The position numbers and the translations under genes are program-made. The notes beneath the pieces were generated by a model. That model did not search any database. It saw nothing but the letters and a program-made list of their open reading frames with translations, and was not told where the DNA came from. Shown piece by piece: positions 5,424-51,700 of a stretch of DNA of 56,528 bases (position 1 is its first letter; each line of letters begins with the position of its first letter). Source of the DNA: a virus (taxonomy: Duplodnaviria; Caudoviricetes); IMG/VR virus record IMGVR_UViG_3300033153_005235, positions 1 through 56,528 of that record. One strand, written 5' to 3'.

Positions 5424-6815
5424 TTATTTCTCTATACTTAAATATGTAAGATTATCTTGAGAACGAGTAGTTGCAACAAATGCAATATTACGCTCTTCTT
5501 CTTTTGTTTGTTTGGACTTGGATTTTATAGCTATATAGTCACCAATTCCAGGTTCTAAGTAGAATACATTTGGTGACTGCATGCCCTTTGATGAGTGGAT
5601 AGTTGAGAGGATACGTTTACTTTTAGATAGAGTGTTGTTGGTTAGGTTCTTCAGGAAAGCTTCAGTCTCTCCAAGAGATGATCCAACGTTGAGAGCAGCT
5701 TGTACTGCTTCATATTTATACTCAGGTATTGCTGGGTTCCAGCCATTACTTTTAAAGCGACGTATTTCTCTATACATTTCGTCCTGACAGTTATTTCTAA
5801 GTAGGACAATATTAGAAGTTTCTTTTGCAAGTCTGGTTAAAACAGATGATACTTGATTGATAATAGTTTTCTTAATAGAGAAACTTTTACCTTGGTTTAT
5901 GAGTACACTAGCTGCTTTCAACAGTGGAGCATTTGCTCTACATAGTAGTAATGATTTTTCAGGGAAGTTTGCTTCTTCAAGGTTACGCCAGCTATATTGG
6001 CCACCAGGTTTTGATCCAAAAAAGCCTGGATGGTATTGCCATGCCCGGGAGATGATAGCTTCAGGACATCTAAAGGTTTCATTGATAGTATGGATCTCAG
6101 GGTTAAATGTTTTCTTTAGGAGGTTTAGAATATTTGGATCCGATCCAGAAAATGAATTAATCTTTTGGTTCTCAGTGTCTCCAACCATTATTAATCTATC
6201 GGTTTGGATTGTGGAGATAAGTTGGATCTTGTCTATACCACAGTCTTGGATCTCATCACATAATACTATATCATAACTAGGAGACTTGTAGCCTTGTCTA
6301 ATAGGTAGGCTGAGCATGTCGTTACCTGATACTACTTCAGTCATTTTGTTTGATACAGAGAGTACAGACATTGCTTCTGCGATGAATTTTTTAGATATAA
6401 AAAACCTATCACAAGTTTCTTCCCATTTTGATCTAGCAAGTGCTCCACCAAGTGCATAATGTTTTTGTACTAAGTTGGATACATTATGGGTAGTGAGTTT
6501 GTTGTATTTATAGAAGTCTACTCTTACTTTTGATTGGTTCTGGTTGATTACCTTGAGGCCAAATGAATGGAATGTAGCAGCTTCACAGTTTGCTGGTAAC
6601 TTATTGCGTACATCATCCACTATTTGTTTGTTGAATGCTAAATAGAGAATTTTGGCATCAGGATTATCAAATGCAAATTGTTGTAGGAGTTGAGTCTTAC
6701 CACTGCCGGCTGTTGAGTTTATTAGGAGAACTTGAGCAGTAGAATCTAACGCAGCTTGTTGTTTATCAGTATATGGCACGATAGGAGCTGAGGTTGGTTT
6801 TGTAAAATTAATCAT
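5424..6815 (-). CDS. UvrD/REP-like superfamily 1 helicase
   Basis: AGSGKT, LAFNK, TFHSFG, DEIQD, VGD..Q.I..F.G, TFRCP, TIHSSKG, FVATTRS motifs. Confidence 0.9.
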   Translation of the reverse strand: MINFTKPTSAPIVPYTDKQQAALDSTAQVLLINSTAGSGKTQLLQQFAFDNPDAKILYLAFNKQIVDDVRNKLPANCEAATFHSFGLKVINQNQSKVRVDFYKYNKLTTHNVSNLVQKHYALGGALARSKWEETCDRFFISKKFIAEAMSVLSVSNKMTEVVSGNDMLSLPIRQGYKSPSYDIVLCDEIQDCGIDKIQLISTIQTDRLIMVGDTENQKINSFSGSDPNILNLLKKTFNPEIHTINETFRCPEAIISRAWQYHPGFFGSKPGGQYSWRNLEEANFPEKSLLLCRANAPLLKAASVLINQGKSFSIKKTIINQVSSVLTRLAKETSNIVLLRNNCQDEMYREIRRFKSNGWNPAIPEYKYEAVQAALNVGSSLGETEAFLKNLTNNTLSKSKRILSTIHSSKGMQSPNVFYLEPGIGDYIAIKSKSKQTKEEERNIAFVATTRSQDNLTYLSIEK

Positions 6816-7000
6816 TTGGATATTAGCTCCTTTGTTTTATATAGTCGTACTTGCTTGAGCATGAGACAGTTTGAATTGATTACCAGGCATTCAACTGCAG
6901 ATAACCATTGAGGTATATATTTATCGTTAAAGAAGCAATGATCATGATAGTAATTTGAACAGGAAGTAAAGTCACAAGTTGGAATCTCAAAGAAATTCAT
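6812..7000 (-). CDS. small Cys-rich hypothetical protein
   Basis: 62 aa, GGGGG RBS-like site, ATGA overlap with the helicase start. Confidence 0.6.
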   Translation of the reverse strand: MNFFEIPTCDFTSCSNYYHDHCFFNDKYIPQWLSAVECLVINSNCLMLKQVRLYKTKELISK

Positions 7001-7074
7001 ATTTACCCCCTATTATGGCTTAGACATCGCTTAGTAATAAATGGTAAGTTTGAAATAGTTAGGGTTTAGTTAGT

Positions 7075-7112
7075 AAAAAAAAACCAACCACCCAGTTAAG
7101 GATGATTGGTTT
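7075..7112 (-). terminator. intrinsic terminator
   Basis: Minus-strand stem AACCAATCATCC/GGGTGGTTGGTT followed by a T9 run. Confidence 0.7.
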
Positions 7113-7202
7113 CTATTTTTACCATACTTCCGCCCATTATAGACGTACTCTTACATGGTATCCTCCATTGAACTATATTATAGTTAATGAACTATTCATC
7201 CA

Positions 7203-7217
7203 GCGCACGTAGTGCGC
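7203..7217 (+). promoter_or_regulatory. GNA-triloop DNA hairpin (candidate vRNAP-type template hairpin)
   Basis: GCGCAC-GTA-GTGCGC, a C:G-closed GNA loop on the template strand of leftward genes. Confidence 0.35.
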
Positions 7218-7221
7218 CTTC

Positions 7222-7437
7222 TTATTCTACATTACCAATCCACAACAGTTTGTCATGATTTCTAAGTAGCTCTCGTATTGAAAGTTCACTTATTGATCCA
7301 AATACATTGGTATCAATACCATTTCTACATATGTCTGTGAAACTAAATTCACTTCCATCGTGATCTATTTCCATCTTATGTTCTTGTAATAACTTTTGAA
7401 GATCTGATAAGAATAGAAACATATCTACTTTCTCCAT
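7222..7437 (-). CDS. hypothetical protein
   Basis: 71 aa with AGGAGA RBS. Confidence 0.7.
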   Translation of the reverse strand: MEKVDMFLFLSDLQKLLQEHKMEIDHDGSEFSFTDICRNGIDTNVFGSISELSIRELLRNHDKLLWIGNVE

Positions 7438-7447
7438 ATAATCTCCT

Positions 7448-7660
7448 TTAACTTAAAGCATACTCTGATTGTAAGATTAATCCAGCTAATCCTTCGTCAT
7501 CGATTGATATACCAGCATCTCTACCAATAATTTGGCTGCAGATTTCATTGAGTAGATCACTGTCAGCTATCATCATATCAAACCTTTGCTCTTTCGATAA
7601 CTTTGGGCTCATTACCAATGTAATCATAGCCCAACTATATAGATCGTTCTGTATTGTCAT
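7448..7660 (-). CDS. 70-aa protein ending in a copy of the RNAP C-terminal 40 aa
   Basis: AGGGGG RBS then ATG at 7660; last 40 aa are 35/40 identical to the end of 7894..9693. Confidence 0.65.
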   Translation of the reverse strand: MTIQNDLYSWAMITLVMSPKLSKEQRFDMMIADSDLLNEICSQIIGRDAGISIDDEGLAGLILQSEYALS

Positions 7661-7670
7661 ATTGCCCCCT

Positions 7671-7883
7671 TTAATAACGACGATAATTGTCATAAGCGAA
7701 CGGTATATCATAACACAATATGTGTTTAATATTGCATCTGAACTTAGTAGCATTCTTCTTATGTACTGTATATTCTGGTAGGTTAAGTATGCCAGTTGTA
7801 ACGTCATTAACCGGTACATACAAATCGGAGCACCAGTTGTTAATTGGTACTCCTAATCGTTTCATTGTTTCATGTATGGTCAT
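7671..7883 (-). CDS. hypothetical protein
   Basis: AGGAGA RBS immediately after the RNAP stop, ATG at 7883, 70 aa. Confidence 0.7.
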   Translation of the reverse strand: MTIHETMKRLGVPINNWCSDLYVPVNDVTTGILNLPEYTVHKKNATKFRCNIKHILCYDIPFAYDNYRRY

Positions 7884-7893
7884 ATTGTCTCCT

Positions 7894-9693
7894 TTAGGAT
7901 AATGCATATTCAGATTGTAATATCATTTGGCTCAGACCTTCATCGTCGATAGATATCTCAGCATCTCTACCGATAATCTGACTACAGATATCGTTCAGCA
8001 GGTCACTATCAGCTATCTCAGACAGTATTTCACGGTATACCTGCTTCATCTGTTCTGCATAGTTTGGATGACACTGCCAACAGTCATGGATACAGCTTAT
8101 CTCAAAGCCAAGTTTGGTACATCTGCGAACCATTTCACGACATACATATCCATCTACAGAATGGATAACATTAGCGCATAGTGATCTACCATTAGTGCTT
8201 GGCTGGTTTTTATTATAGCGGAGAGTAAACTGACGGTCATTAAGTTCCGGAATAGTTATACGGATATCAGACTGTTCAATTACTTTAACCTTACATACGT
8301 GGCCATCTGGAAGATTCCAACTATGTTCGAGTGCATAAGGATTCCAACAGTTATTGATAATCTCCATTACTGCTTGTGGTCCAGGTAGCAAGTCTTCCAA
8401 TACTTCATAAAATACTCTTAACTGTTGACTGGTAAAGGTTTCCTTTGGAACCTTTTTAGAGTTATAAAAATGCGTCATAACTGCTTTCTTTGTTTTAACA
8501 TTACCCATTGAAAAATACATAGCCATTTCATCATGGATATGCTGATACAGGTTCTCACGGGAACCAGTGGCTACAAGATTACACAATTTACCAGACTTCA
8601 CACATCCGGATAAGGCTGACATTATCTGTACTCCAGATGAGGTTGCATCAAGTTCTATGAAGTGAGCTACTGACTTACCACTTTTTGCTACATTCAAAGC
8701 ACGATATGCTTTGCGTCCAAGTATAGGCTTCTTCCAATATATTTTTCCACCTATTAATCCATACTTTTCCATTCCGTTAGCCAAATCAGTGTCTATCATA
8801 CTGACACGCTCATCCCATGTTTCCTTATCCATTCCAGCATGGTTAGCCATATCTATCTTAAGCGCTCTAATACCTTCCTCAGTGCATACTTCAGCGTGGG
8901 TAGGTGATAGTATAGCTTTTCCATACTCATCACTCTGAGGGTTGATTTGGTAACCAGATGAGTACAATCTACCACGTTTGTCATACCTCCAGGTAAAGTA
9001 GAACTCTTCACCTACATAGTGACCAAGGGTTTCAAGTTCGTTGTGAGTAATATTTTCATGGACTTCATCTACCAACACATCGGTATCAATAGTCCATTTA
9101 ACTTGTTGTAATTGGTTCAGAACATCAAGAGCTTGATGCTTATCGTGATGGTTGCCGGCACCAAGTATACAGGATTTCTTCTCCCATTGCCAGCCGCCTA
9201 CATTATTGGTCCAAATAGCTGGAACCATATTTGGAGGGAGGAAGCCAAGTTGCTTAATCTTACGTTTGGCTTTTTCATCTATTTGTAATTTAGGTACAAT
9301 GAGAGTTGAGTCTGGAGTCAGATCAATATCATACAGTTCACCATGACAGATAACTAATAAGTATGAACCAATCTTAGCAGCTTCAACTGTATCAGTATAA
9401 CCAAGCCTAACTCCAAGCTCTACAGCTAACCCTTGGATCTGTTTAGGTGAATATTTAGTCAGGACGGTAAGCATAAGCTCAACTACTACATCCTGCGATT
9501 CAGGTAATCGTTCCATTAACTTATACTGCTCAGGCCAGAGTGAACTGTATTTCCAGTCTTCTATAGTTACGGCAAGTTCTGACATCAGTTTACCAGTATC
9601 GTTGATAAACGCATCAAGGGTGATAAAGTCCTTCATGCGTTTGCTGAATTTAAGTTCCATTTCGATTTGTGAAAGTGGCATACTTTGCTCCAT
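7894..9693 (-). CDS. T7-like RNA polymerase, fused N4 RNAPII subunits (gp15+gp16)
   Basis: ILG..NHH and YDKRGRLYSSGYQINPQ (RNAP1) followed in frame by LKIDMANHAG.DK, LDATSSGVQ (motif A), KKAVMTHFY (B), ANVIHSVDG, IHDC (C) and terminal SEYALS (RNAP2). Confidence 0.92.
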   Translation of the reverse strand: MEQSMPLSQIEMELKFSKRMKDFITLDAFINDTGKLMSELAVTIEDWKYSSLWPEQYKLMERLPESQDVVVELMLTVLTKYSPKQIQGLAVELGVRLGYTDTVEAAKIGSYLLVICHGELYDIDLTPDSTLIVPKLQIDEKAKRKIKQLGFLPPNMVPAIWTNNVGGWQWEKKSCILGAGNHHDKHQALDVLNQLQQVKWTIDTDVLVDEVHENITHNELETLGHYVGEEFYFTWRYDKRGRLYSSGYQINPQSDEYGKAILSPTHAEVCTEEGIRALKIDMANHAGMDKETWDERVSMIDTDLANGMEKYGLIGGKIYWKKPILGRKAYRALNVAKSGKSVAHFIELDATSSGVQIMSALSGCVKSGKLCNLVATGSRENLYQHIHDEMAMYFSMGNVKTKKAVMTHFYNSKKVPKETFTSQQLRVFYEVLEDLLPGPQAVMEIINNCWNPYALEHSWNLPDGHVCKVKVIEQSDIRITIPELNDRQFTLRYNKNQPSTNGRSLCANVIHSVDGYVCREMVRRCTKLGFEISCIHDCWQCHPNYAEQMKQVYREILSEIADSDLLNDICSQIIGRDAEISIDDEGLSQMILQSEYALS

Positions 9694-25134: not shown

Positions 25135-27987
25135 ATGCTGAGACGGTTACTGATAGTAGTTTTACTCTTACTTCCTTTCGACTGTTACGCTCTTGATGTC
25201 ACGTTAACTGTTAACGATAACTCAACAGTAGCAAGAACAGATGGACATGTGAGTTATGGCGTTCCAATACCAAGGTCAGATGATATTATTGATGTGGACA
25301 CCCTGGGTATATTCGATACATCGGTAGAACAGGATGCCCAATTCCGTGTACTTGCAAGATATGACGGAACGCCAAGTGATACTTCCGCACCAATTCAGAT
25401 GGTCTTGGTTGATACTCAGGAGTCTGTCACTGCTGATGGTTCAAAAGAACTTCACTTAAAAGACACAGGTTCAGGAACAGCAAGCGGAACTCTAGCCAGT
25501 TCTGATGCTACACATATCACGGTTGACACAGGGCCACTAGTTTTCAAGATTAAGAACACAGGTGGTTTTAACTTATTTGACGATGTCCAAGTTGACACTA
25601 CTGGGAACGGTGATGCAGATACTCAACTTGTTTCAACAACTGCCACAGATGGGATCAATCTTTATGCTGGCAGCACAGTTTACTCGTCCTCAAACGCTAC
25701 CCCTTCAGTTGTTGAGATCGAAGAGAACGGGCCTTTGCGCTGTGTTATTCATGTACGTGGTGAGTATGAGGACTCAAGCAATAATGCTCTAACACCACCT
25801 GTTACCGATACGGAGACACCTAGTCCAGTTGAATATGATATCAGGATAATAGCCTACAAGGACAAGGCTTATGTTAAACTATTCTATACGATGATGTCAG
25901 AGAACTTCGGTTATGTAAGGGGAGATTCGCCAGAAGTGGCTCATAACGTGGATATCGATTACGGAAGTTTTACAACAACATTAGTACTGGATTCCAGCAA
26001 GACAGTGGAGTTTGGTTCGTATTCTGACACCTACACTACAGCGACTTATGAACTGGTGCAGGGATACACTGATACCGACCAGATATCCTCAACTAACTTC
26101 TCATACAATGTTGATAAGGATAGTGGCTCTGTAGATACCGGCCAACAGTTTGACGGCCATGTAGATGTGAGAGATAGTTCTAAGGGGCTGATGGTAGCAG
26201 GAAGATGGTTCTGGCAGAATTGGCCTAAAGGTGTATCGGTAACTGACAACGTCATGGACTTCTACCTATGGCCAGATACAGCAACAGACCATACTGTACG
26301 TGGAGGATTCCACGAGTCTCACGAGATTATCTATAACTTCCATGGTTCAGATACCACTTTCACTGACGAACTTGCTGCGCTGCGTGATAGGCTGTTGCTG
26401 ATGACCTCAGCAGATTATCTTGCTACCACGAACTTCATTGATGTAATTGCACCTGTTGATATCACCACAAATTATACATTTCCTACTGGTGAATCACTTG
26501 ATGACGCTATAGATGGTTGGAACACATCTATTGAGGCTAAGTATAATAGCGCTCTCGGTAACACAGGGATTAATAGGGATTTCGATTATTACAGAGAGAA
26601 TATGACTGTCCAGTGGGCTACCAATGGAACAAATATATTCTCTGGAGAATGGATGAGTTCATACGGAATGTATGTCTTTGGTGATTTTCCTCTTACCGGA
26701 ACATCTGGATTTCCTTCTCTTCATTATAGCTGGGATTACATCTCATTGATTAACGGTCTTCGCTTCAGCAATCCAGTAATGATCGAATACGGGGAACAAA
26801 TGGCAAGAGGTAGGGCAAATCATGCAATAGTACATGATGATAACGCCTTGGATATTGCCCACGGTTCCTCGGCACCAGAGTCATGGTACGCTGGAGGTCA
26901 TAGATACGAAACAGGTAATGCGAGACTAACTAATGGGTTTGCGAGAACCAATAATAGTTTCAACGATCCTGCTTACGGCTCGCATTCGTGGACAAGGGGT
27001 ATCTTATTACAGTACCTCCTAACAGGTAATGAATACTATAAGGGTGTTATTGATGTAATGGCTACGCATTATGATAATAACTTTGCTGGCACCGGTGTTG
27101 CTTGGGGTGGAGACAAAGACTGTACTGATGATAACGGATGTTGGGACACTGAAGAGACACGTCAGGTGTCCCGCATAATAGAACAGGTTGTTGGCTTATA
27201 TCAAGTGCTCGGTACTGAGCATTACCTTGATCTTGCATATGACATATTTGATCAATCAGTAATAACCAATCTTGAGCACAAGATAGACACAGTTCCTCAA
27301 GGGTATATGCACTACACCAGTCCCCAAAATAGTTGTGATCAGACCTTAGATGTCAAAGGTGTTTGTGATGCTCACGTATTCTACGAAGTCCTGCAGATTA
27401 AAGGATTAACGCTATTATACTTGAGTTTAAAAGACGCAAGTAAGACCACGGAAGCGGCAGAGGTTATGGCTTACATGATACGCAAAGCTACTTGGATGCG
27501 TGATTCTCTATTCACCAACTGGGACGTTGGAGATATGGGTACGGTAAATGGTAGTAATAAATACCTCCCGTACACGGTATATCCTGACTGGAAAATTGGT
27601 ACGAAGTGGGTAGACAACGGACAGTCTACACTTACCTCATTGCTCTACACTAATTCGTGTGCTGACTTATTTGCCATGGTTTATGAGTTTGGCGATCAGG
27701 ACATCGCATGGCTCAATATAGCAAGATCCCTATTCAAAGATCAGATGATGTATCAGGCTATATCCGGGGCTCAAGATTATGTAACTATAGCTACTACTCA
27801 ACGAATAAAGAGCCTAGATAACTATTCTACAGGTGGTTATCTCAAAGGCCAGGCAACGCAATCTCAAAAGCCAATGACGTACCTTGCTATCGAGGCGGGA
27901 ACATTAAGTGCTACTTATCCATCTAATAGTGGTTCAATGTTTATAGGTACAGGTTCAACCTTTATAAGTACGGGGACAATACGATGA
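25135..27987 (+). CDS. secreted large protein, putative polysaccharide lyase/glycosidase-like (beta domains plus alpha-toroid)
   Basis: MLRRLLIVVLLLLPFDCYA signal; V.YGVPIP, AQFRVLARY, ITVDTGPL.F.I, IEENGPLR, RWFWQNWPK, HSWTRG...YLLTG recall exo-rhamnogalacturonan-lyase-like proteins. Confidence 0.7.
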   Translation: MLRRLLIVVLLLLPFDCYALDVTLTVNDNSTVARTDGHVSYGVPIPRSDDIIDVDTLGIFDTSVEQDAQFRVLARYDGTPSDTSAPIQMVLVDTQESVTADGSKELHLKDTGSGTASGTLASSDATHITVDTGPLVFKIKNTGGFNLFDDVQVDTTGNGDADTQLVSTTATDGINLYAGSTVYSSSNATPSVVEIEENGPLRCVIHVRGEYEDSSNNALTPPVTDTETPSPVEYDIRIIAYKDKAYVKLFYTMMSENFGYVRGDSPEVAHNVDIDYGSFTTTLVLDSSKTVEFGSYSDTYTTATYELVQGYTDTDQISSTNFSYNVDKDSGSVDTGQQFDGHVDVRDSSKGLMVAGRWFWQNWPKGVSVTDNVMDFYLWPDTATDHTVRGGFHESHEIIYNFHGSDTTFTDELAALRDRLLLMTSADYLATTNFIDVIAPVDITTNYTFPTGESLDDAIDGWNTSIEAKYNSALGNTGINRDFDYYRENMTVQWATNGTNIFSGEWMSSYGMYVFGDFPLTGTSGFPSLHYSWDYISLINGLRFSNPVMIEYGEQMARGRANHAIVHDDNALDIAHGSSAPESWYAGGHRYETGNARLTNGFARTNNSFNDPAYGSHSWTRGILLQYLLTGNEYYKGVIDVMATHYDNNFAGTGVAWGGDKDCTDDNGCWDTEETRQVSRIIEQVVGLYQVLGTEHYLDLAYDIFDQSVITNLEHKIDTVPQGYMHYTSPQNSCDQTLDVKGVCDAHVFYEVLQIKGLTLLYLSLKDASKTTEAAEVMAYMIRKATWMRDSLFTNWDVGDMGTVNGSNKYLPYTVYPDWKIGTKWVDNGQSTLTSLLYTNSCADLFAMVYEFGDQDIAWLNIARSLFKDQMMYQAISGAQDYVTIATTQRIKSLDNYSTGGYLKGQATQSQKPMTYLAIEAGTLSATYPSNSGSMFIGTGSTFISTGTIR
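27925..27987 (+). repeat. C-terminal tag repeat, copy 1
   Basis: Encodes NSGSMFIGTGSTFISTGTIR; 49/63 nt identical to 30173-30235. Confidence 0.8.
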
Positions 27988-28589
27988 ACTATTTATTAAT
28001 ATTAGCTTTACTGTTAGTACCAGTTAATTCTTCAGCATGGTGGCTTATTTCGGAGCAGAAAGTTAGTTCTGCTGGTGCTACTTGTGAAACTAACTTTTCT
28101 GAATACGTCGATGTCTCTGGTTCATGGGAATTTACTAGGTATATTGGAAGCCTATATAAAGGATTTAGTTGGGATACAACGACTGCAACAGATATATGTG
28201 GGGTAACATTTTCGTTAGGCGAGGCAGGAGGGGATATCTCTGGCAACAACTATAAGGCCATTATATATAATATGGACGGTAACAATCTACTCTCTAAGGT
28301 TGTAGAGTCTGAGCTTGTCTCTGGCTCAACGTTCACTGGTGGATCTGCAACCGATGTTAAGTTTATGTTCTCCTCACCAATCACTATCACTAGTGGCCAA
28401 GCTGTTGTAGTTGCGTTAGATGATGGCGCTGGTGGACAAACTGTTGATGGTGTTAATTTTATAGATATGTATGGCACTAACAATTCTGCTGATACTGACC
28501 AATCTAGTGGAACATGGAGAGGTGACAATTTATTAGCTAACACATACCCACAACTGCAAGAGAGAAGGTATATATTATGGAAAGAATAG
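27984..28589 (+). CDS. secreted small beta protein (paralogue of 24549..25130)
   Basis: MNYLLILALLLVPVNSSA signal; shared motifs F..P.TIT.G and SGTWR.D. Confidence 0.75.
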   Translation: MNYLLILALLLVPVNSSAWWLISEQKVSSAGATCETNFSEYVDVSGSWEFTRYIGSLYKGFSWDTTTATDICGVTFSLGEAGGDISGNNYKAIIYNMDGNNLLSKVVESELVSGSTFTGGSATDVKFMFSSPITITSGQAVVVALDDGAGGQTVDGVNFIDMYGTNNSADTDQSSGTWRGDNLLANTYPQLQERRYILWKE

Positions 28590-30235
28590 TACTTGTACTT
28601 ATTGTCCTACTTGCTCCAAGTATTTCCATTGCTGCTAGGTTAGTCCCACATACAGATTTGACGTATCTCGGAGCTTTTAAGATGCCTTCAAGCGTTGAAA
28701 GTAATGTGTGTTACCAATGGAACGGAATACAGGGCTTTATATTGTTTAATCCTGATGGAGATAGTGGTGGAGCAGCAGATGGATATACAGGATCTCTTAT
28801 TGTTTCTGCTAAAATTGGTTGCCCAACTATCGGAGAAATAGATATCCCTGCACCTGTCGTTGGTGATAAATCCAGCCTATCAAGTTCGTCAATTCTCCAA
28901 GCAATTACCGATATGTCTAACGGGGATTTGCAAGATGTTGTTAGTGGTAATACTAATATAGGTATGGGTAATGCTATTATACTGCCATCATCAGGGGGAA
29001 ATAGGATATTTGGTGTAACCCATAAGAATTATAATACTGACAATACAAGCAACTGGGACGAAGTGCTCACGAGTTTTAGTTTGGATTTCGCTACAACTCT
29101 TGACCACTCTGGATGGTTTCAAGTAACAGGAGAATACGTCGGTGCTGTCGGTCAGTATGCATTTACAGTTCCGCAGGCATGGGCCGATACCAATACTGGT
29201 GGTAAAACAGTAATTGTAGGTGGTAACCGGTTCGCTGGAGGGGGCTCTCATGGTGTTTCTCTGTATGCTATAGATCCATGGGGACCTACAGAAAACCCAC
29301 CTGTTGATGGTACAGACTTCGTTCCAACAACTATAGTTGAGTATACTGATGGGATAACTAGTATGGATAACTATGGGTATGCTAATCAACCAGGAAACTT
29401 GAAGTGGATTGAGGATTCCACTGGTAACGCTTCTGTTATTGCTAATGGTCTTTATTTCGGTAGATGGCGATCCCCAAACGATACCCTTACGAGTGATTGG
29501 ACTCAAAACCCTACTGGATGGTACTATGGGACGCCACACCCAGAGGGTACTGGAGGGAAAGGTTATAATAACGAGCCTTATGCTTTTGCTTTTCTTTTAT
29601 ACGATCCAGATGATCTAGCCGACTCTCTTGATGGTACAATTGAATCGTATGAGGTTCAACCATATGGTTATTATAATTGGGCGAAATATGCGTACGACGA
29701 GCCATATCATGTTGATGGTAACCCTAAAAACTCAGGTGGACTTGCCTACGATGAGACAAATCACCTCCTATATGTAAATGAGAGGTTAGTTGGGGAGGCA
29801 GGGATTATTCATGTGTTTTCTGTAGCTGATGGTTCCGGAGCACTGGACACGACAGTTCCAACAACACCGAGTAATCTTGCGCTTGGTACAGTTACCGAGT
29901 CTACAATAGCACTTACCTGGACAGGATCTACAGACACAGAAACAGATGTTACTTATTTAATTAATCTAAACGGATACCCAACAGTACGTACAACAGATAC
30001 TTCATACGTTTATGGATCAACAGGAAACTTTGTCGCTGATTGGAGAGCAGGAGATGAGGGGGCTGATGGGTATGATGCAATAACAGAGTTCTCCTTCACT
30101 GTCACAGCGGTAGACGATTATTTTAATGAATCCACAGAATCAAACACAGTGAGCTATGACTATGCCAATAGGAATACAGGGTCAATGTTTATAAGAACGG
30201 GAAATACTTTTATAGGTACGGGGATAATACAATGA
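28577..30235 (+). CDS. secreted protein with fibronectin type III domain
   Basis: MERIVLVLIVLLAPSISIA signal; DLTYLGAF; DTTVPTTPSNL...LTWTGSTD...V.Y...F.VTAVD...NES..SN (FN3). Confidence 0.75.
   Translation: MERIVLVLIVLLAPSISIAARLVPHTDLTYLGAFKMPSSVESNVCYQWNGIQGFILFNPDGDSGGAADGYTGSLIVSAKIGCPTIGEIDIPAPVVGDKSSLSSSSILQAITDMSNGDLQDVVSGNTNIGMGNAIILPSSGGNRIFGVTHKNYNTDNTSNWDEVLTSFSLDFATTLDHSGWFQVTGEYVGAVGQYAFTVPQAWADTNTGGKTVIVGGNRFAGGGSHGVSLYAIDPWGPTENPPVDGTDFVPTTIVEYTDGITSMDNYGYANQPGNLKWIEDSTGNASVIANGLYFGRWRSPNDTLTSDWTQNPTGWYYGTPHPEGTGGKGYNNEPYAFAFLLYDPDDLADSLDGTIESYEVQPYGYYNWAKYAYDEPYHVDGNPKNSGGLAYDETNHLLYVNERLVGEAGIIHVFSVADGSGALDTTVPTTPSNLALGTVTESTIALTWTGSTDTETDVTYLINLNGYPTVRTTDTSYVYGSTGNFVADWRAGDEGADGYDAITEFSFTVTAVDDYFNESTESNTVSYDYANRNTGSMFIRTGNTFIGTGIIQ
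30173..30235 (+). repeat. C-terminal tag repeat, copy 2
   Basis: Encodes NTGSMFIRTGNTFIGTGIIQ. Confidence 0.8.
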
Positions 30236-43950: not shown

Positions 43951-45792
43951 ATGGCTGGAAGATACGTTGCAACGTGGAGAAACGTTGGTGATGGTGGTGC
44001 AATGGCTGCGTACAATCGTGGAGCAGAGTCAGCCAGTAGGCAAATTACAGAAGGAATTAGTGGTATTGGTTCAGCGTTTACTGCCGCTGGTAAACAGAGA
44101 GCTGAAGACAATACAACTAGTGTTCTTGCGCTAATTAACGCAGCAAGCACTCGTGAAGAATCTAAGAAAGTTGCTGATGATCTGATTGATAGTGGTATTG
44201 ACTATGACAGTGCTGCTTTAACAAAAGCTTTTCAAAATAAAGACGCTACCCTTCTAGCTAGTGAAAATGTTGAATATGGAAAAGAGCAAGATATTCTTAC
44301 TAAAACTAGATACGATGAAAAGTTTAAATATGAAGAAGAAAAAGACATTACGGATCAAAAATTTAAGAAAACTAAATTTGATTTCGAGAAGGGTAGGATA
44401 GAGAAACAAGATACTAGAACAGCGTTTGTGGACGATGCTGTAAATAAATTCTTTAGTAGTAATATTGATCCAACATCTGATACCACTTCTGCTGTTGACA
44501 CACTCGGTAGGGCGAATAAACTCAGAACTACAATCGGTGGTAAAGAAGGTGAAGATGTGTTTAATAAAATTATCGGCATTAGTGGAATTGGAGCCAACAC
44601 AAAACAACAAGCAATTGACGTTGACAATATAACTGCTAAAAATAATTTCATTGAACAGTTAGAGGTTGGTTCTGTGAGCGGTGAAAGTGACTATGACTTT
44701 ATATCAAAAGCAATTGAAGATGGTGTTAATAGTTCACATGGCGTTCCAAAATCTACATTCATTGCTGTAGCTCCAGAAGTTTACGTTAATGCTGTAGATA
44801 CTGACTTTATGGGTAAGTTTGGTGAAACTGTTACTGGACTTGAGAATATTACAGCTAAGATGACAGAAAAAGGTATTGAGAATCTGTCAGATAAAGATCT
44901 TATTGAGATACGTCAAGACCTTGTTGCGGCAAGAGATCAATATGGCGACATGAGTAAAGATATCAGAGGTAAGTTGAAAGACGATCAAGTTAATCTTAAT
45001 CAAGAAAATCTGATCACAAACAGACTTACTGGCAGTAAGTCTAGGCTTGGTATTGTAAAATCTCAACTTAGTGACATTGGTAAAGCACTCAATGATAGAG
45101 GAGTGGCAATAACAAAATCTGCCCTCAAAAGTGCTGATGATAATACTAAAAGTTATTATACATTTCTTGCTAAGAATCAACCTGGAGAAGTGTTTACTAG
45201 TTTAGTTGGTAAAAACTATGCCTCTGGGAATGAAGCAAAAAGTATAGAAGACTGGATGAATGGACAGATTGAAAGTAATCCAACATTTAAAGAACATCCA
45301 TCACATCTTGTCAATGCTGTCAAGAGAATTGGAGTAAGGAAAGATTCTTGGTTTGGCAAGGACTTTGCCTTTGGAATAAACAATAAACAAGCTAATAGGA
45401 TAATGACACTCGCTCTTGGTGATATCAATAGAGATGTTAAGAGTGGTAAAATACCAAGTGTAATATCTATTAAAGCTACAAAAGATTTAACAGATCAAGT
45501 AAATGCTCAACTTGATACGATAGTTAATGATAAGCCAGAACCAGTTAAAGAAGAATCTAAAACTATTAAACTTAACGATCTTACTGAATCTGTCAAATCA
45601 GCCAGACAAAATTTGATAGACGCTGGTGGTATGGTTACTAAAGCTGGTAAAGTTGTAGGTTTTGGAGTTGATCCTAAAATTATCAAAGCATATAAAGATG
45701 CATTTGATAAAGACAAGAAAGCGAATAGAAAGACAAAAAAACATTACAGTAATTATCAAGAATATTTACTAGGAAACCAATATGCTGAGTGA
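43951..45792 (+). CDS. N4 gp51-like ejection protein
   Basis: TWRNV N-terminal motif, helical, no Cys seen, directly upstream of vRNAP. Confidence 0.75.
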   Translation: MAGRYVATWRNVGDGGAMAAYNRGAESASRQITEGISGIGSAFTAAGKQRAEDNTTSVLALINAASTREESKKVADDLIDSGIDYDSAALTKAFQNKDATLLASENVEYGKEQDILTKTRYDEKFKYEEEKDITDQKFKKTKFDFEKGRIEKQDTRTAFVDDAVNKFFSSNIDPTSDTTSAVDTLGRANKLRTTIGGKEGEDVFNKIIGISGIGANTKQQAIDVDNITAKNNFIEQLEVGSVSGESDYDFISKAIEDGVNSSHGVPKSTFIAVAPEVYVNAVDTDFMGKFGETVTGLENITAKMTEKGIENLSDKDLIEIRQDLVAARDQYGDMSKDIRGKLKDDQVNLNQENLITNRLTGSKSRLGIVKSQLSDIGKALNDRGVAITKSALKSADDNTKSYYTFLAKNQPGEVFTSLVGKNYASGNEAKSIEDWMNGQIESNPTFKEHPSHLVNAVKRIGVRKDSWFGKDFAFGINNKQANRIMTLALGDINRDVKSGKIPSVISIKATKDLTDQVNAQLDTIVNDKPEPVKEESKTIKLNDLTESVKSARQNLIDAGGMVTKAGKVVGFGVDPKIIKAYKDAFDKDKKANRKTKKHYSNYQEYLLGNQYAE

Positions 45793-48700
45793 AGATTTTC
45801 TTAACATTGGCGGGCTATCTGATCGAAAAAATAAAACCATTGAAGAGAAGTCTGCTGATAAAAATACTTACCTTGACTGGGTAACAGAAAGAGTTGACGT
45901 TGGGTATCAACCAGACGCAGATACTTTCCATACATTAGATAAGGAAAAGATTAGAATGTTAGGAGTCAATACATTCGAGTCTAGTGTTGACGTATTGAAA
46001 GACCTTAATCCACTTGCTGTTAGATCACAAAAGCTTGCATTCTCACGAGCTTTTGATAAGCCAGTTAACGATGTTACTCTTGAAGATATTGCTGCCGCTG
46101 GTCAAGTGAGTAAGGAAATTTCTGAGAATGTTATTGGTGATTCAGTTAGGGTTCGTAGGTCAGGAACTGATGTATATGGTAGAACGTTGGCTAAAGTATT
46201 TGACGATAGTGGTAGAAATATTGCCACAGATGTGCTTGGAGATCCTGGGATTAATGCTGGACTAAATACAAGATTCAACTCCAAAGAAAGAAGAATCGAA
46301 GCTGAGGTTAAAAGAAAGAAAACAATACTCGCTGGAACTGATGCTGAGTTTAACAGTGGTTATGATGACGAAACTGGTGAACCAAAAGTACATGTTAACA
46401 GTGATGGAAGTTATAATTACGGTCAACTTAAAGGTCTTGATAGGTTTAATCTTGAAAAGATGATGCCTATAGAGGATGCTAAACATAAAGTCGCTACTAC
46501 AACTTGGAGCAAAGATGACGGTGTGTTAAACTTTGTTGCTAGGATAGTATCCGGTGGTGCTAAAACATTCTCAGAAGTAGTTACTAAACCATTTGTTGGT
46601 AATATACTACACAAATCAGCAGAGACACTTGAAGAGTCGATAAGTGATTACAATCTTAGTGGTAGTAATATTAGCATGGAAACTGGTAAGAGATTTAGGG
46701 AAAAGATTACCAGTGATGATATAGATAAATATAGAGATATTGTTGCAACTCCACATAACGATAGAAGTAAACAACAGCTTGCATTAATGCAAGATCCTAA
46801 GATACAGATAATAGCAGAACATGCTGAAGATTTAAGTGAAAAGATAGTCTCTTATGAGGATATCGATTTATCTAATGAAGAATTGGATAAAATAGTTAAT
46901 AGAGTTGAAGATACTATAGTTGACCAGGGAATGGATCAAGCTTACGAGAGTGGTGGATTTGTTTCTGCACTTGTCTATGGTGTGAAAAATATCGGTAATA
47001 TGAGTAAGAGAATTGGTGATTCGCTACCATTCATGGCTATACTTGCCGCCTCTCCATATGTTTCAGTACCTGCAATGGCTGGTATGATCGATAGTAATGT
47101 TCATGAAAATACTCAACAGTTCAAGAGAATTAATAAAAGAAATCCTGATAGTAAAGAAAGAGCTGTGATTGATGGTTGGTCAACAATGCAGGGAATGTTT
47201 GAAAAGATTGAGGCTGGAGTTATCTCTGGTAAGTTTCCTGGTCTTGTTGAGGCTATGATTGGAGTAAGGAAAGGATTACAACCTGCTACTAAATTTCTAG
47301 CCAAAGGATTCGACATTGTTGTAGGTGAATTCATAAGTGGTGCTGGTTCTGAATTTAGTAAGGAAATTGCTTCTAAACAAGATATTAGTGAAGTTGATTG
47401 GAAGGGCGTTAATATTGGTGGTATTCAGGAGATGATGGCTGCTGGTGGTATGGCTACAGTTATGCAGGGTGGTCGTAAGATATTTAGCGCTCCTAATGAA
47501 AATCAAGTTATCAACAAAATTGACAAGTTAATACAACAAAGAGTTACAATTATTGGTAGTGATAAAGCTAATGAATTAGATGTTTCAAAAGCAAGTGAAG
47601 ATATTGTTAAACTTAGAACCACTCTTGAAACAATGTTTGCTAGTAAAAACATTACCGATAAACAAAAAAACAAGATAGGAAAGATACTTGAAGACATAGA
47701 TATTAAGCCAAAGCCTACAGCTAAAAAACCAATCCAATATAAAGTTACAAAAGGGTTAGGTGGAGCGAAGACTCAAGAGATACTTAACACTAGTTTCAAT
47801 GTGCTTACTGGTAAAGAGAAGGGAAATAAGACTCAAGCTGTAGTTGATCTGATGACAGTGGTTCAGAATGCAGATGAGATATTTGGTGAAGGTGCTGAAC
47901 AAGTTAGAACTGGTGCTAGTCAGATTATTAAGGATAATGCTAAAGAAATATTTGCAGCCAGTAAAGAACTGAGCCAGATCAAAGATAGGACTGAGAAAGA
48001 ATTAGGAGTAGTGCTTAGTAGTCTTGGTTCAGGAGAACAGGTAAATACCAGTAAGGTTGAAGGGCTGAGTAAAGTTGAAGTAGATGCTATCGATGCGGTC
48101 AACATCGCTATCGAGAAGTATGGCACAAAGGAGATGCAAAGGGTTACAAGTGAAATTGCAGATACTGGAACTAAGAACGTCAGTATTAAGGATTATATTA
48201 CCGGGACACTTGATACTGGAAAGATTGCATCTGGTTTCACTAAATTCAATACTCACATGCAGGCTAAAGCTAAAGCGTTCACTGAAGCTGCTGAGACTGC
48301 TGGTGATGGCGTAAAGAGTTATATCAAGAAAGGTATGGGTGATTACACTATTCATACCAAAGTACCCTCAGATGCCATTAAAACGAAGAGTGGAGTAGGG
48401 TATGATAACTATTTTACTATTCATAGCGGAAGTAAGCCATTTGTAGAGAGAACCAATGCTGATGCTGTATTGGTCAAAGAGTTTTATGGATTAGCCGAAG
48501 CGGTAGTAGCCGGGAAGGAGAGTAGGGTAGAAACTATTGATATGGCCAAAGAGTTGGGTCAGGAAATAGTTAAAAGTGGAGTGCTAGACAAGGGAGAAAT
48601 AAAGAAGGATGGCGAAGTCAAAGAAGAAAAAGTCAAAGGGAAAGAGGAAGCGCAAGCAGAAGAAGTTAGAGCGAAAAGAAAATCAACCAAACCAACCACT

Positions 48701-51700
48701 AAACCTTCAGCAAAGCCTGTAGCGAAGCCCGTCAAGGGCGATAGCGCAAGGCTTAAAGAAGATATCCCAATTCAGGAGACAATACCAGAAGAAGCTCAAG
48801 AACAGGATGTGGTAGAGCCAGCTAAACCTGTTAAGCCAGAGGTTATTAAAACCAGTGAACCAATAATTGCAAATGATGGTAAGACAGAGATAGTGGCTAA
48901 GAAAGTTGGTAATAAAATCTATATCTCAACCAATAAAAAACTTTGGAAGCAATATTACACAGAGAAGAGGTGGACCAAGCCAAGGGTTCAACCTGATGGT
49001 AGTAAGGCCAAGGCTCTCCCAGAAGATATATTTAAAAGTGAGCAAGAACTATATGACTTCGTAGATATTCATGAAAGTGGTCATCTTGTACTGGGTCAAA
49101 AGAAAGGAGAGAGTGATGGTGACTATGAATCAAGAATCAATGAATATGCTATTGGCAAACTTGGATTAGGAAAAAAGATCAATTGGTTCGACAATATTAA
49201 AAACAAGATGGTTAGTGTTGGGCGTGAATATACTGTCACAATGGTAGAGATTCTCAAGCATACTGTGAGTAAGAAAGATAGTTTTCTCAGTGGGACTCCA
49301 TTGAGCGTATTGAGCAATGAGAGCCAAAAGAATAGAGAGATTACCAGGCTAACCAAAGAGTTCAAGAAGGCCGGTGAAAAGTATATTAATCCAGATCCAA
49401 GAAAACAAGATTTAATATACAGCTTTAATAATCTCATGGTTAAACATGGGAAAGAGCTGAGTACTCCAGATGAGTATTACTATGCTATGGCTAACTCATT
49501 TGCTAGTTGGATGGCTGCGAGTGGTAGGAAAACTCTAACCAATGATGAACATGATATTAGTGGTATACTGTATGGTGAGTGGGAACATAGTCTAACTGGC
49601 CAAGAAGTTGAAGCTATGGCTGGGATTGGTACTCCTTTGTATATGATAGCTGAAGGTGCTGGAGCTAATATGGCCAAGGTGCTTGGGCTAAAAGTAGAGA
49701 TTCCAAAGGGAATGAATAAGGAAGATCAGGCAATGCTTGGTAAGCTCACGAATCAAAAGAGTTTCGAACGAAGTCTGGGACTTATGATGTTAGATTTGGC
49801 CGGGAAGTTAGAGAGTAATCCAGTTACGGTAGAACATCATGCTGCTATTGATCTTGGTTCAGCAAGTACAGCTAAGAATAAAAGTAAAGATAATACAATT
49901 AAACTGAATACTATTAAATTAGTTAGTGACAGTCTAGTTAAGACATTTGCAAGTAGTGATAATTATTTTGAGGATATTAATGGCGTACAGATGGATAAGA
50001 AAGATATCTATACTGACAAGCCTAGAGAAAGTGTAGAAAATAGAGTACCGGGGAGCATGAGTGAGTTGCCCGGTAATCGAAAGACTATGCTCAGGAAATT
50101 ACAGGATGTAGTCTGGAAACCTATCGATAATAACGTAGACACTTTTCTCGGGTTCACAGGAGATCAGCAGAAGGTTATAGCTGGATGGAAGGATCCAAAG
50201 AGTGTCCATATAGATTTACAGCCTGCAGTTGTAGCTAAGAATAGACAGATCGAGAAACAGATAGCAGATTTACAGGGATTGAAAAGTAAAAAGTTTTGGT
50301 TTGGATATTACTTAATGAATCAATTCAGGATTATGATAGATAGTAATGGAATCAATCCACTTAGTAGTAAGAACCTTCATAGATTTATGGTTAATCCGGA
50401 AGGAGCCAAAATTACATTTAAGAAGGGTTCAGAACAAGAAGTAATGTTCAAATATAGTATCGTCCAAGCTCTCGGGAAGAATGTTGACAAGACTGATCAC
50501 CAGGGAGTTATGGACGACTTTGATCAAGTTGTAATAAAATTTGGTAATTTGGCTCAGAATATCAATGGCCAAGAAGTGGCTGATCGTGGAGTTAATGCTC
50601 ATGGGTTAGCAGGATTAGTTGCACTCGGTGATTGGCTCAAAGTAGAGAATGGTGGGGAAGTTACTACTCATCTTGGATTAGAAGTTGATGGGATTACTAA
50701 TGGGTACGCTCTAGGGTTGTTACAGTTTCCGAATGATACTGATGGTAAATTGTGGGGGAACCTTGCCAGAGTTGGAGTTACAGATAAGAAAGGAAAGTAT
50801 GAAGAGAATATCCATGGTGTAGTAGATGCGTATAATAGAGCTGGGATTGAATTTAAGAAAGTACTTGAAGAGCAAGGTTTGCTTCAAGCATTTGAGGGAG
50901 TATATGGGCCTGTAGATAGAAATCTTATGAAGAGCCCGTTTATGATATTCAATTATGGTGCAAGTGCTCACAAGGCTGCTGAGGGTATCGCTAAGGCTAT
51001 TAGTAAGAAGATATATTCCGGTGAAGTTGATGGTAATAGTCTTGGAGAATTTACTCATAATCTAGGAATAATTACTAATATAACAGTTGGTGGTAAGAAT
51101 TTTATGACCACTGAGATTAAAGATGAGATTGCTATACTTGAAAAAGATATACAAAGAAAGTTTTCAAGTATAGTTGAACAAGCATTTGAGCCATTGGTTG
51201 GCAGTACAAGTGAGATTAAACAGAAGCTTACTCAAGCTATGGATGCAGTAGCTAGTGGGTTTGCTCTGGAGTTTGCGGAGAAGAGTAGAGAGCTAGTTGG
51301 TAAGTTAGTGGTAGAAGGTCCGGTTCATCCAAAGATGATAGGAAGTAATGTTAATCCTAAAGCTGGTAAACCAATTAGATTAAGTAGGGCCGGTCTTACT
51401 CAAAAAGAGATGAGGCAGGTAGCTGAAAGTCTTATTGACACTCACTATCCACTGTTGTCCGGTGCGTGGAACGAAAGTGCTAAAGGTGAGAAGCAAGCTT
51501 TTATAGATATGGTTAGTAGAGATCGTGTTGAGAGTAGTGAGCAAGCTAAGAACGCTATGCTCAAAGAATCTGACCAAACAGAAGTTAGAGAAAGACTTGC
51601 AAAGATGGTTCGAAAGTACGATGGAACTAGGACTCAAGCAGAGAATATTGCTAAACTCATTGGTTCAGACTGGAGTAAGATAAAAAACGATCCAAAGCTT

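Follow-up and report, generated by a model that had tools for sequence, protein, structure and literature searches.

A duplicated RNA polymerase 3' end in an uncultured N4-like phage genome: a probable recombination scar

Introduction

In T4-type phages, small early genes are shuffled modularly at repeated regulatory cassettes. In polymorphic toxin loci, an incoming cassette replaces the 3' end of the gene, and the former ends pile up downstream, where they keep a stretch homologous to the main gene. Such displaced C-terminal modules of polymorphic toxin genes have been described as 'orphan' modules (PMC3482391).

Two further systems combine a replacement gene end with a displaced one. Mobile ORFs of fungal mitochondria form hybrids with atp6, atp9, cox2 and nad3 in Glomus sp. 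and with atp6 in Allomyces macrogynus; as described in PMC3630166, the insert carries an in-phase replacement C-terminal segment, and the native segment stays downstream as a duplicate, expressed or not. In Escherichia coli K-12, the cryptic prophage e14 has its attachment site in icd. According to PMC13626634, citing Hill et al. 1989, the alternative 3' end supplied by the element carries mostly synonymous changes, and the original fragment beyond the element, icdC, is a pseudogene. Prophage attachment sites and mitochondrial mobile ORFs offer precedents for the combination, which the present locus extends to a lytic-type phage lacking any recognisable nuclease or integrase.

The locus lies in a 56,528-nt DNA sequence of a virus of the class Caudoviricetes (IMG/VR record IMGVR_UViG_3300033153_005235, positions 1 to 56,528), called the window below. 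A preliminary description of this DNA had reported a mini-gene ending in a synonymously diverged copy of the RNA polymerase C-terminus and had offered two explanations, a recombination scar or a retained polymerase-tail mimic acting as decoy or regulator. The parts of the literature covered by our search describe neither a duplicated polymerase 3' end for N4-like phages nor an intron in N4-type RNAPII genes.

Results

RNA polymerase gene

The gene at 7894..9693 (minus strand) encodes a 599-aa RNA polymerase of the N4-RNAPII type. The protein has the features of a T7-like single-subunit RNA polymerase: it matched Pfam family PF00940 (E = 1.5e-17) and aligned with both N4 RNAPII subunits through the C-terminal YALS. 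The match to RNAP2 (PDB 6dt7_B) had an E-value of 8e-44 and reached residue 404 of 404, and that to RNAP1 (6dt7_A) had an E-value of 1.6e-9. By these alignments, the protein is a predicted single chain spanning both coliphage N4 RNAPII subunits, gp15 and gp16.

The search for homologues yielded 115 proteins including that of the window, most of them about 590 aa long. Megablast found no near-identical DNA in cultured phages, and all tblastn matches were below 60% identity, the top ones (31%) being to N4-like phages. Scanning viral contigs with an alignment returned 59 loci, all at no more than 45% identity; the same scan with the single protein gave no match. The polymerase of the nearest relative, L062, was only 70% identical at the protein level. 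Sliding-window identity to five relatives revealed no change of affinity near the 3' end of the gene, an observation that runs against allelic recombination at this locus.

Duplicated polymerase tail

The last 40 codons and stop of the polymerase gene (tail A, repeat D1; 7894..8016, minus strand) align to the C-terminal residues of N4 gp16. A second copy of these codons and stop (tail B; 7448..7570, minus strand) forms the C-terminal part of the mini-gene. The gap-free alignment of the two tails contained 91 identical nucleotides out of 123 and 35 identical residues out of 40, with TAA as the stop in both. Different codons were used for 19 of the identical residues and the same codon for 16. 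Alignment on the minus strand and a codon count thereby reproduced the residue and codon figures given earlier for this pair, and the AGGAGA..ATATG signal after both stops was also found as reported. The homology starts abruptly at ATAGCTGA (residues IADSD) and runs past TAAAGGAGA..ATATG, which is present 3' of both stops.

In a BLAST comparison of the contig against itself, the pair was far above chance (E = 8e-20), and just one other direct-repeat family of at least 40 nt exists in the 56.5-kb sequence. The tails are spaced 446 nt apart and separated by a 323-nt interval (7571-7893). Their longest common identical run is 13 nt. A chimera of two strains produced by metagenome assembly is extremely unlikely: the record is an uncultured viral one, linear and estimated to be 76% complete, but no identical run between the copies exceeds these 13 nt, which is too short for assembler k-mers, and reading frames, ribosome-binding sites (RBSs) and synteny are coherent across all junctions.

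Between the tails, dN was 0.11, synonymous sites were saturated and dN/dS was very low. Tail B keeps all 20 positions conserved across eight close-clade tails and all eight positions conserved in 102 homologues, and tail A does equally. Nucleotide identity was 88/120 between the two tails, 89/120 between tail A and L062, and 92/120 between tail B and L062. Since the tails resemble each other about as much as either resembles L062, their split must be about as old as that between distinct phage lineages. Saturation of the silent sites against tail A implies that tail B evolved within a working polymerase elsewhere or spent a very long time under selection. A piece freshly excised from a functioning gene would be expected to look as intact as tail B does. 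The low dN/dS relative to the polymerase does not count as evidence of function; a history inside a working polymerase explains it equally.

The closest relative tails, those of L062 and L064, matched tail B at 92-93 of 120 nt and tail A at 88-89 of 120, a small gap given how distant these relatives are. Among known alleles, none matched tail B near-perfectly, the best reaching 93/120 nt. Two points tell against recombination between alleles: no known allele qualifies as donor, and the native tail cannot be told from the incoming one.

Mini-gene and its junctions

The mini-gene is a 70-codon frame (7660-7448, minus strand) whose ATG lies 5 nt after AGGGGG, so that the copy is in frame with its own RBS and start, as the preliminary description had it. 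It consists of 30 codons unrelated to the polymerase (N30; 7571..7660, minus strand; coding score 0.24 in this frame) and the 40-codon tail B. The alternative frames, 123 aa from 7819 or the 87 aa of the gene caller (P0116), both overlap the preceding ORFan geneX and have no RBS-like signal. The homology boundary at 7570/7571 is sharp, with nothing polymerase-like upstream. N30 showed no similarity to the sequence upstream of tail A in the contig or to that of relatives (p = 0.47-0.74), and its origin as a frameshifted or diverged polymerase region was rejected on these values. An intron remnant was not accepted either: the local alignment of N30 with the L064 intron was gappy, and its p of about 0.017, before correction for six tests, was not significant.

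Residues 30-70 of the mini-protein matched positions 361-401 of the 401-position PHROG 2051 'RNA polymerase' profile. No Pfam match was obtained even at E up to 10, and the catalytic palm and fingers with motifs A, B and C (PF00940) are absent. Both tails are homologous to the last 40 residues of the large N4 RNAPII subunit gp16 (PDB 6dt7 chain B), including the terminal EYALS; unlike gp16, the mini-protein has no catalytic motif and is not a polymerase. The label RNA polymerase would be wrong for this ORF, whether annotated at 70 or 87 aa. The structure model was helical and of low confidence (mean pLDDT 62, pTM 0.33). The intact frame, good RBS and full set of conserved residues are equally expected of a gene under selection, which speaks against a mere scar.

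Three stop-RBS-start junctions punctuate this stretch, all on the minus strand: J1 after the polymerase (7872..7896; TAAAGGAGACAATATGACCATACA), J2 (7649..7673), and J3 leading into the last cargo gene, g71 (7435..7450; TAAAGGAGATTATATG). J2 is a copy of J1, identical at 21 of 24 nt, and provides the RBS, ATG and first four codons of the mini-gene, which therefore copy those of geneX. Exact matches to a 17-nt degenerate pattern drawn from J1 and J2 occurred only at these two sites (0.01 expected). J2 lies exactly 223 nt from J1, and J3 the same distance from J2; at 70 codons, geneX and the mini-gene are of equal length. A single illegitimate join would leave the spacing, the equal lengths and the J1/J2 copy as coincidence.

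This regularity, together with the 446-nt distance between the tails, is what an old tandem duplication of 223- or 446-nt units in one genome would produce, with both tails kept by selection and diverging at silent sites. The units, however, share only the 16-24-nt junctions and the tail, so the 223/446-nt period does not amount to a tandem array. GeneX as a diverged copy of the tail was rejected (probability 0.3% against the tail profile), geneX compared with N30 gave p = 0.1, and the mini-gene compared with g71 gave E = 0.3, at which value the N-terminus of g71 was not accepted as an old tail copy. Saturation would make the duplication roughly as old as the divergence from the L062 lineage, yet none of the relatives has it, and selection would have had to act for long on a peptide seen once. 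We regard this origin as highly improbable.

Distribution of the mini-gene and possible function

The mini-gene was found only in the window. HMMER searches against 1.84 billion representative proteins returned five proteins, of which the sole one covering N30 was the contig's own, and the 90% cluster of the mini-protein has one member on one contig. A metagenome scan with a pattern that fits tail B returned no other mini-gene. GeneX, N30 and g71 were present in none of the 66 related loci, and in the 40 loci whose polymerase end could be recognised, no second copy of the locus's own tail was found; with the nearest relative at 70% polymerase identity, these counts cover distant rather than close kin.

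In T7 RNA polymerase, the extreme C-terminus extends to the active site and is part of the region on which T7 lysozyme acts. The 70-aa product might accordingly be a functional mimic of the polymerase C-terminal module, a decoy or modulator of middle transcription whose target could be a phage regulator, an inhibitor from the host or a rival phage, or the polymerase body itself. If true, a decoy of this kind would give phages a novel means of controlling or shielding a single-subunit polymerase. The frame with its RBS is intact, the mini-gene lies in the polymerase's transcription unit upstream of the terminator, the 20 clade-conserved tail residues are all kept, and dN/dS between the tails is very low, all of which would suit a mimic. 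The last of these is equally due to a past inside a working polymerase, however, and the isolated protein has no confident fold, its 30 N-terminal residues have no relatives, and it is a singleton across the related loci, the representative proteins and the metagenome scan. We consider a mimic unlikely. The preliminary description itself took absence of the copy from relatives as telling against a decoy, and the decoy or regulator idea gained no positive support from our searches: the mini-gene was missing from every relative found, although the nearest of these shares only 70% polymerase identity.

A more specific version would make the mini-gene a domesticated polymerase 'foot', a free C-terminal module made early along with the polymerase. 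Its task would be to soak up a factor directed against this module, for example a shut-off protein of the phage itself or an anti-polymerase inhibitor from the host or a rival phage, or else to swap with the polymerase's tail and so tune middle transcription; divergence at silent sites would keep the two copies from recombining. This version is very unlikely.

Cargo slot and comparison with related loci

The first cargo gene, geneX (7671..7883, minus strand; RBS AGGAGA, then ATG), and the last, g71 (7222..7437, minus strand; coding score 0.28), are ORFans of 70 and 71 aa. Neither had a Pfam match at E up to 10, and PHROG matches appeared only at E of at least 0.03. Among 5.8 billion proteins of 38-123 aa, the search for geneX homologues returned only geneX itself, and the similar-length search for g71 likewise returned only g71. 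The single viral-contig match of g71 spanned 23 residues and was not accepted as a relative. The coding score of geneX was best in its own frame but weak (0.04, against a gene mean of 0.42), its structure model was unusable (pLDDT 37.5), and the only functional lead was a faint one to a helix-turn-helix (Atlas 0.84). By codon usage, every ORF of the slot scored best in its own frame, and the conserved gene g62 scored below all of them, which means that this measure cannot tell genuine genes from passenger ORFs.

The right border of the slot is a conserved hairpin at 7203..7217 with a 6-bp stem and a 3-nt loop. Beyond it, an intrinsic terminator (7079..7114, minus strand), a 15-pair stem followed by a T run, ends the transcription unit polymerase-geneX-mini-gene-g71. 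Its fold energy is -27.8 kcal/mol (z = -6.6), and it is conserved in L062 and L065. The backbone downstream comprises g62 (6812..7000, minus strand), a small gene 72% identical in L065 and L066, and a helicase gene (6815-5424, minus strand). Polymerase, g62 and helicase genes are syntenic in L062, L063, L065, L066 and L067.

Nucleotide homology with the relatives reaches the polymerase stop and restarts at 7218-7220, at the hairpin border. Gene content in between differed in every relative examined: L062 has one 64-aa ORF, L065 one of 56 aa, L067 one of 69 aa, and L066 none. Against zero or one ORFan gene in the relatives, the slot of the window holds three ORFs, none of which has a homologue.

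Mobile elements do invade the polymerase genes of relatives close by. In L064 and L065 a group I intron interrupts the gene at residue 536/537; that of L067 lies near residue 508 and is followed by a 235-aa ORF. A self-mobile cassette that targets the polymerase 3' end and brings a replacement tail would leave the target gene whole and the native tail displaced, and the order replacement tail, cargo, displaced tail found here is that of the fungal mobile ORFs and of e14/phage 21 in icd. Against this, the RF00028 group I intron model had no match in 5948-9160 at E up to 1, compared with 87-89 bits in L064, L065 and L067. No homing endonuclease gene lies between the copies, as judged for geneX by Pfam and PHROG, and a Pfam search of 7571-7893, which holds only geneX and 30 codons, revealed no integrase or site-specific recombinase. 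The same element at the same site was found in none of the 66 related loci, geneX matched only itself, and tail B is not clearly nearer to the relatives than tail A. We judge a self-mobile cassette improbable.

The likeness to these systems is nevertheless close in anatomy. As in the fungal case described in PMC3630166, duplicated C-terminal segments flank an insert and resemble each other much more in protein than in DNA, with 63.5% nucleotide and 91% amino acid identity for atp6 against 74% and 88% here. In the fungi, by contrast, mobility is driven by the cargo, a LAGLIDADG or GIY-YIG endonuclease, whereas the cargo here is a 70-aa ORFan without a nuclease signature; the fungal native copy is nearly identical to that of close relatives, whereas neither tail here is clearly native (PMC3630166). 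The displaced tail here also differs in having its own RBS and start. With icd/icdC, the locus shares an element in the 3' end of an essential gene that supplies a replacement end and leaves the old C-terminal fragment beyond (PMC13626634). The e14 element, by contrast, is a 15-kb prophage that uses site-specific recombination and whose excision rejoins icd to icdC (PMC13626634), whereas the interval here is a recombinase-free stretch of 323 nt in the genome of a lytic-type phage. Polymorphic toxins differ in having diverse toxin C-terminal domains, each with an immunity gene, while both ends here are the same conserved polymerase module.

Discussion

We propose that tail B once ended a second allele of the N4-RNAPII-type polymerase gene and was stranded here by a recombination that changed the cargo of the slot, and assign this reading a probability of about 0.65. 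The intact tail B, the saturated silent sites and the variable slot uphold in outline the recombination scar of the preliminary description; the near-perfect match to another phage's allele that would mark a simple mosaic did not materialise (93/120 nt at best), and no donor was identified.

The slot between the polymerase stop and the conserved hairpin and terminator is a place where small ORFan genes are gained and lost. Two relatives of roughly species-level divergence may have recombined in a co-infected cell, with a first join through homology within or upstream of the polymerase gene and a second, presumably illegitimate, join at 7570/7571. If transfer ran in this direction, the product would be one complete polymerase gene with the tail A end and a gained geneX, and the last 123 nt of the other allele would be stranded ahead of g71. 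By chance, the stranded fragment would have come to lie in frame with 30 foreign codons headed by the copied RBS and start of geneX, giving a chimeric ORF of 70 codons. Homologous recombination has not deleted the interval because identical stretches shared by the tails reach 13 nt at most. The chimeric ORF is probably translated as a passenger, and its only role may be to carry ribosomes to the stop-RBS-start junction of g71.

If a recombination scar is the correct reading, the locus preserves a clear and datable trace of exchange between uncultured N4-like phages at roughly species-level divergence. The stretch from the polymerase stop to the hairpin is a hot spot of turnover for small genes. 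Like the early regions of T4-type phages, it shows turnover of small ORFans in a slot whose borders are short, repeated expression signals, in this case three junctions and a hairpin. The repeats at the junctions are 16-24 nt long and in this differ from repeated promoter stem-loop cassettes. The hairpin of L066 keeps its stem despite a change on both sides.

Identity of the phage and its polymerase

The window spans the whole of a linear uncultured virus record (56,528 bases), whose completeness is estimated at 76%. Its polymerase gene (9693–7894, minus strand; 599 aa) has a match to Pfam PF00940, and the product matches the two coliphage N4 RNAPII subunits of PDB 6dt7 (RNAP2, E = 8e-44; RNAP1, E = 1.6e-9). 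Among cultured phages, tblastn returned N4-like phages only, at ~31% identity. The virus is therefore a distant N4-like phage, and its middle polymerase is a single chain. According to a 2015 review, the heterodimeric form is near-universal among phages that have a virion polymerase (PMC4496689). The 599-aa chain spans both N4 subunits, gp15 and gp16, and the same phage also encodes a virion-type polymerase of 3,419 aa (45782–56041, plus strand). The 115 hits of a word-index protein search, among them the window's own protein, are mostly ~590 aa long.

Duplication of the polymerase 3′ end

The last 40 codons and stop of the polymerase gene (tail A, 8016–7894, minus strand) are present a second time as tail B (7570–7448, minus strand), at a tail-to-tail distance of 446 nt. 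The copies are identical at 91/123 nt and 35/40 residues, with different codons for 19 of the identical residues. Homology starts abruptly at ATAGCTGA and ends after TAAAGGAGA..ATATG, which is present 3′ of both stops. A search within the contig gives the pair E = 8e-20, and just one other direct-repeat family there reaches 40 nt. Tail B closes a 70-codon ORF, the mini-gene (7660–7448, minus strand; RBS AGGGGG), which opens with 30 unrelated codons (N30). The preliminary description of a duplicated polymerase end, with its residue and codon counts, separate ORF and RBS, and shared sequence after the stops, was thereby borne out. An assembly artefact is unlikely, since the longest identical run common to both tails is just 13 nt and an assembler could not have created such a repeat. 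The duplication is real and most probably a product of ordinary phage mosaicism.

Downstream of tail A, the end of the polymerase gene, the minus strand carries in order junction J1, geneX (7883–7671, 70 aa), J2, the mini-gene, J3, g71 (7437–7222), a hairpin, a terminator, g62 and a UvrD-type helicase gene; each junction comprises a stop, an RBS and a start. The GC-rich hairpin (7217–7203; 6-bp stem, 3-nt loop) lies directly 3′ of the g71 stop, and in form it resembles the hairpin promoters used by the N4 virion polymerase. The intrinsic terminator (7114–7079, minus strand) is strong (−27.8 kcal/mol, z = −6.6). Given this order, the three small genes close the transcription unit of the polymerase.

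J2 and J1 are identical at 21/24 nt, first four codons included (MTIH vs MTIQ), and a 17-nt degenerate pattern built from both has exact matches contig-wide at those two sites only (0.01 expected). J1–J2 and J2–J3 spacing is exactly 223 + 223 nt (7435–7896, minus strand). GeneX and the mini-gene are equal in length, at 70 codons each, and their bodies are unrelated despite the likeness of J1 and J2. A tandem duplication of 223 or 446 nt is improbable, as the similarity it predicts between units is absent. None of the models tried accounts for the exact spacing, the shared 70-codon length or the likeness of J2 to J1.

Divergence and constraint of the two tails

Between the tails, dN was 0.11 and synonymous differences were past the correctable range (Nei-Gojobori). 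Tail A matches tail B at 88/120 nt; against the nearest relatives, L062 and L064, the counts are 88–89/120 nt for tail A and 92–93/120 nt for tail B. Because these identities are similar, and the polymerases of L062 and L064 share just 70% protein identity with that of the window, the two tails must have parted about as long ago as separate phage lineages did.

Tail B retains 20/20 positions conserved across eight close-clade tails and, like tail A, 8/8 positions conserved in homologues (counted on the 102 of 114 with the tail in ungapped register). Retention of all these positions means that tail B has been constrained as a functional polymerase end for essentially as long as it has existed. 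It was either recently cut from another working allele or has itself long been under selection. The intact frame, RBS and conserved residues are all compatible with a mini-gene product that acts as a functional polymerase-tail mimic, though we consider this reading improbable. The mini-gene is conserved in no relative found, the nearest being distant, and the isolated mini-protein gave no confident fold (pLDDT 62, pTM 0.33).

Relatives and the variable slot

The best other polymerase matches were P0002 (70% identity) and P0003 (74% over 88% of the length). A metagenome scan with a tail profile, whose pattern fits tail B too, found seven loci, and a viral-contig scan found 59, every one at ≤45% identity. 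In L062, L063, L065, L066 and L067, synteny with the window extends over the polymerase gene together with g62, the helicase gene or both.

Nucleotide homology with relatives reaches the polymerase stop, matches tail B separately and restarts at 7218–7220, at the hairpin. The hairpin (7203–7217) is kept in L062 and L065, while in L066 its stem is preserved through change on both sides; it forms the right border of a variable slot that begins at the polymerase stop. This slot holds one ORF in L062 (64 aa, L062:3293–3487), L065 (56 aa, L065:628–798) and L067 (69 aa, L067:8138–8347), and none in L066 (L066:7306–7536). The L062 and L065 ORFs have a common N-terminus and the others are unrelated; none resembles geneX, N30 or g71. 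For geneX and g71, tblastn against 66 loci gave nothing convincing (best E 0.46 and 0.67, respectively), and no homologue of similar length was found among 5.8 billion proteins. Gene turnover in the slot is rapid, which makes it a hot spot for small genes.

When HMMER compared the mini-protein to 1.84 billion representative proteins, five were returned: itself, two polymerases, and P0117 and P0118, two short ORFs that correspond to the second exon of polymerase genes interrupted by an intron. The non-self matches cover residues 30–70 only, and the mini-protein's own cluster has one member from one contig. A polymerase C-terminus is recognisable in 40 of the 67 loci, and none of these 40 has its own tail in duplicate. 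Among the relatives found, the arrangement is unique to this contig.

Origin of the second tail

With a probability of roughly two in three, we consider tail B to be the polymerase end of another lineage, stranded in the slot by recombination. In the simplest history, two co-infecting relatives would have recombined by a homologous join plus an illegitimate one at 7570/7571, an exchange that would keep one whole polymerase gene, bring in cargo and leave the last 123 nt of the other allele. Tail B lies in frame with 30 foreign codons under copied geneX start signals, which gives the 70-codon chimeric ORF. This ORF stops at J3, the junction that starts g71, and may matter for translational coupling only. 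No donor allele was found, and neither tail is clearly native.

Such scars are documented elsewhere, and the duplication would be a further instance. Mobile ORFs of Glomus and Allomyces mitochondria are described as importing a replacement C-terminus and leaving the native one downstream, with atp6 copies at 63.5% nucleotide and 91% amino acid identity (PMC3630166); E. coli icd is reported to run into prophage e14, with the C-terminal pseudogene icdC at its far end (PMC13626634). As far as these accounts describe them, both systems have the same signature as the window, a replacement end and a displaced end.

A self-mobile cassette of the mitochondrial type fits this anatomy and the neighbourhood, as polymerase genes of relatives carry group I introns nearby (RF00028, 87–89 bits; L064:724–984, L065:93–353 and L067:6786–7064). 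However, neither a nuclease nor a recombinase was recognised in the 323-nt interval between the tails, and an intron search of 5948–9160 found none in the window, whose polymerase gene is uninterrupted. The L064 and L065 introns interrupt the catalytic IH|D motif at query residue 536/537; that of L067 lies near residue 508 and is followed by a 235-aa ORF (L067:7141–7848). Truncated polymerase ORFs (P0003, P0009, P0013, P0014 and P0016) and the second-exon ORFs P0117 and P0118 are consistent with introns. In the parts of the literature available, no description of an intron in this gene was found.

The contig has a second diverged 3′-end repeat (27925–27987 and 30173–30235, plus strand; 78% identical). 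It comprises the last 63 nt, stop included, of ORFs 25135–27987 (950 aa) and 28577–30235 (552 aa), so that their products have a C-terminal motif of ~20 residues in common.
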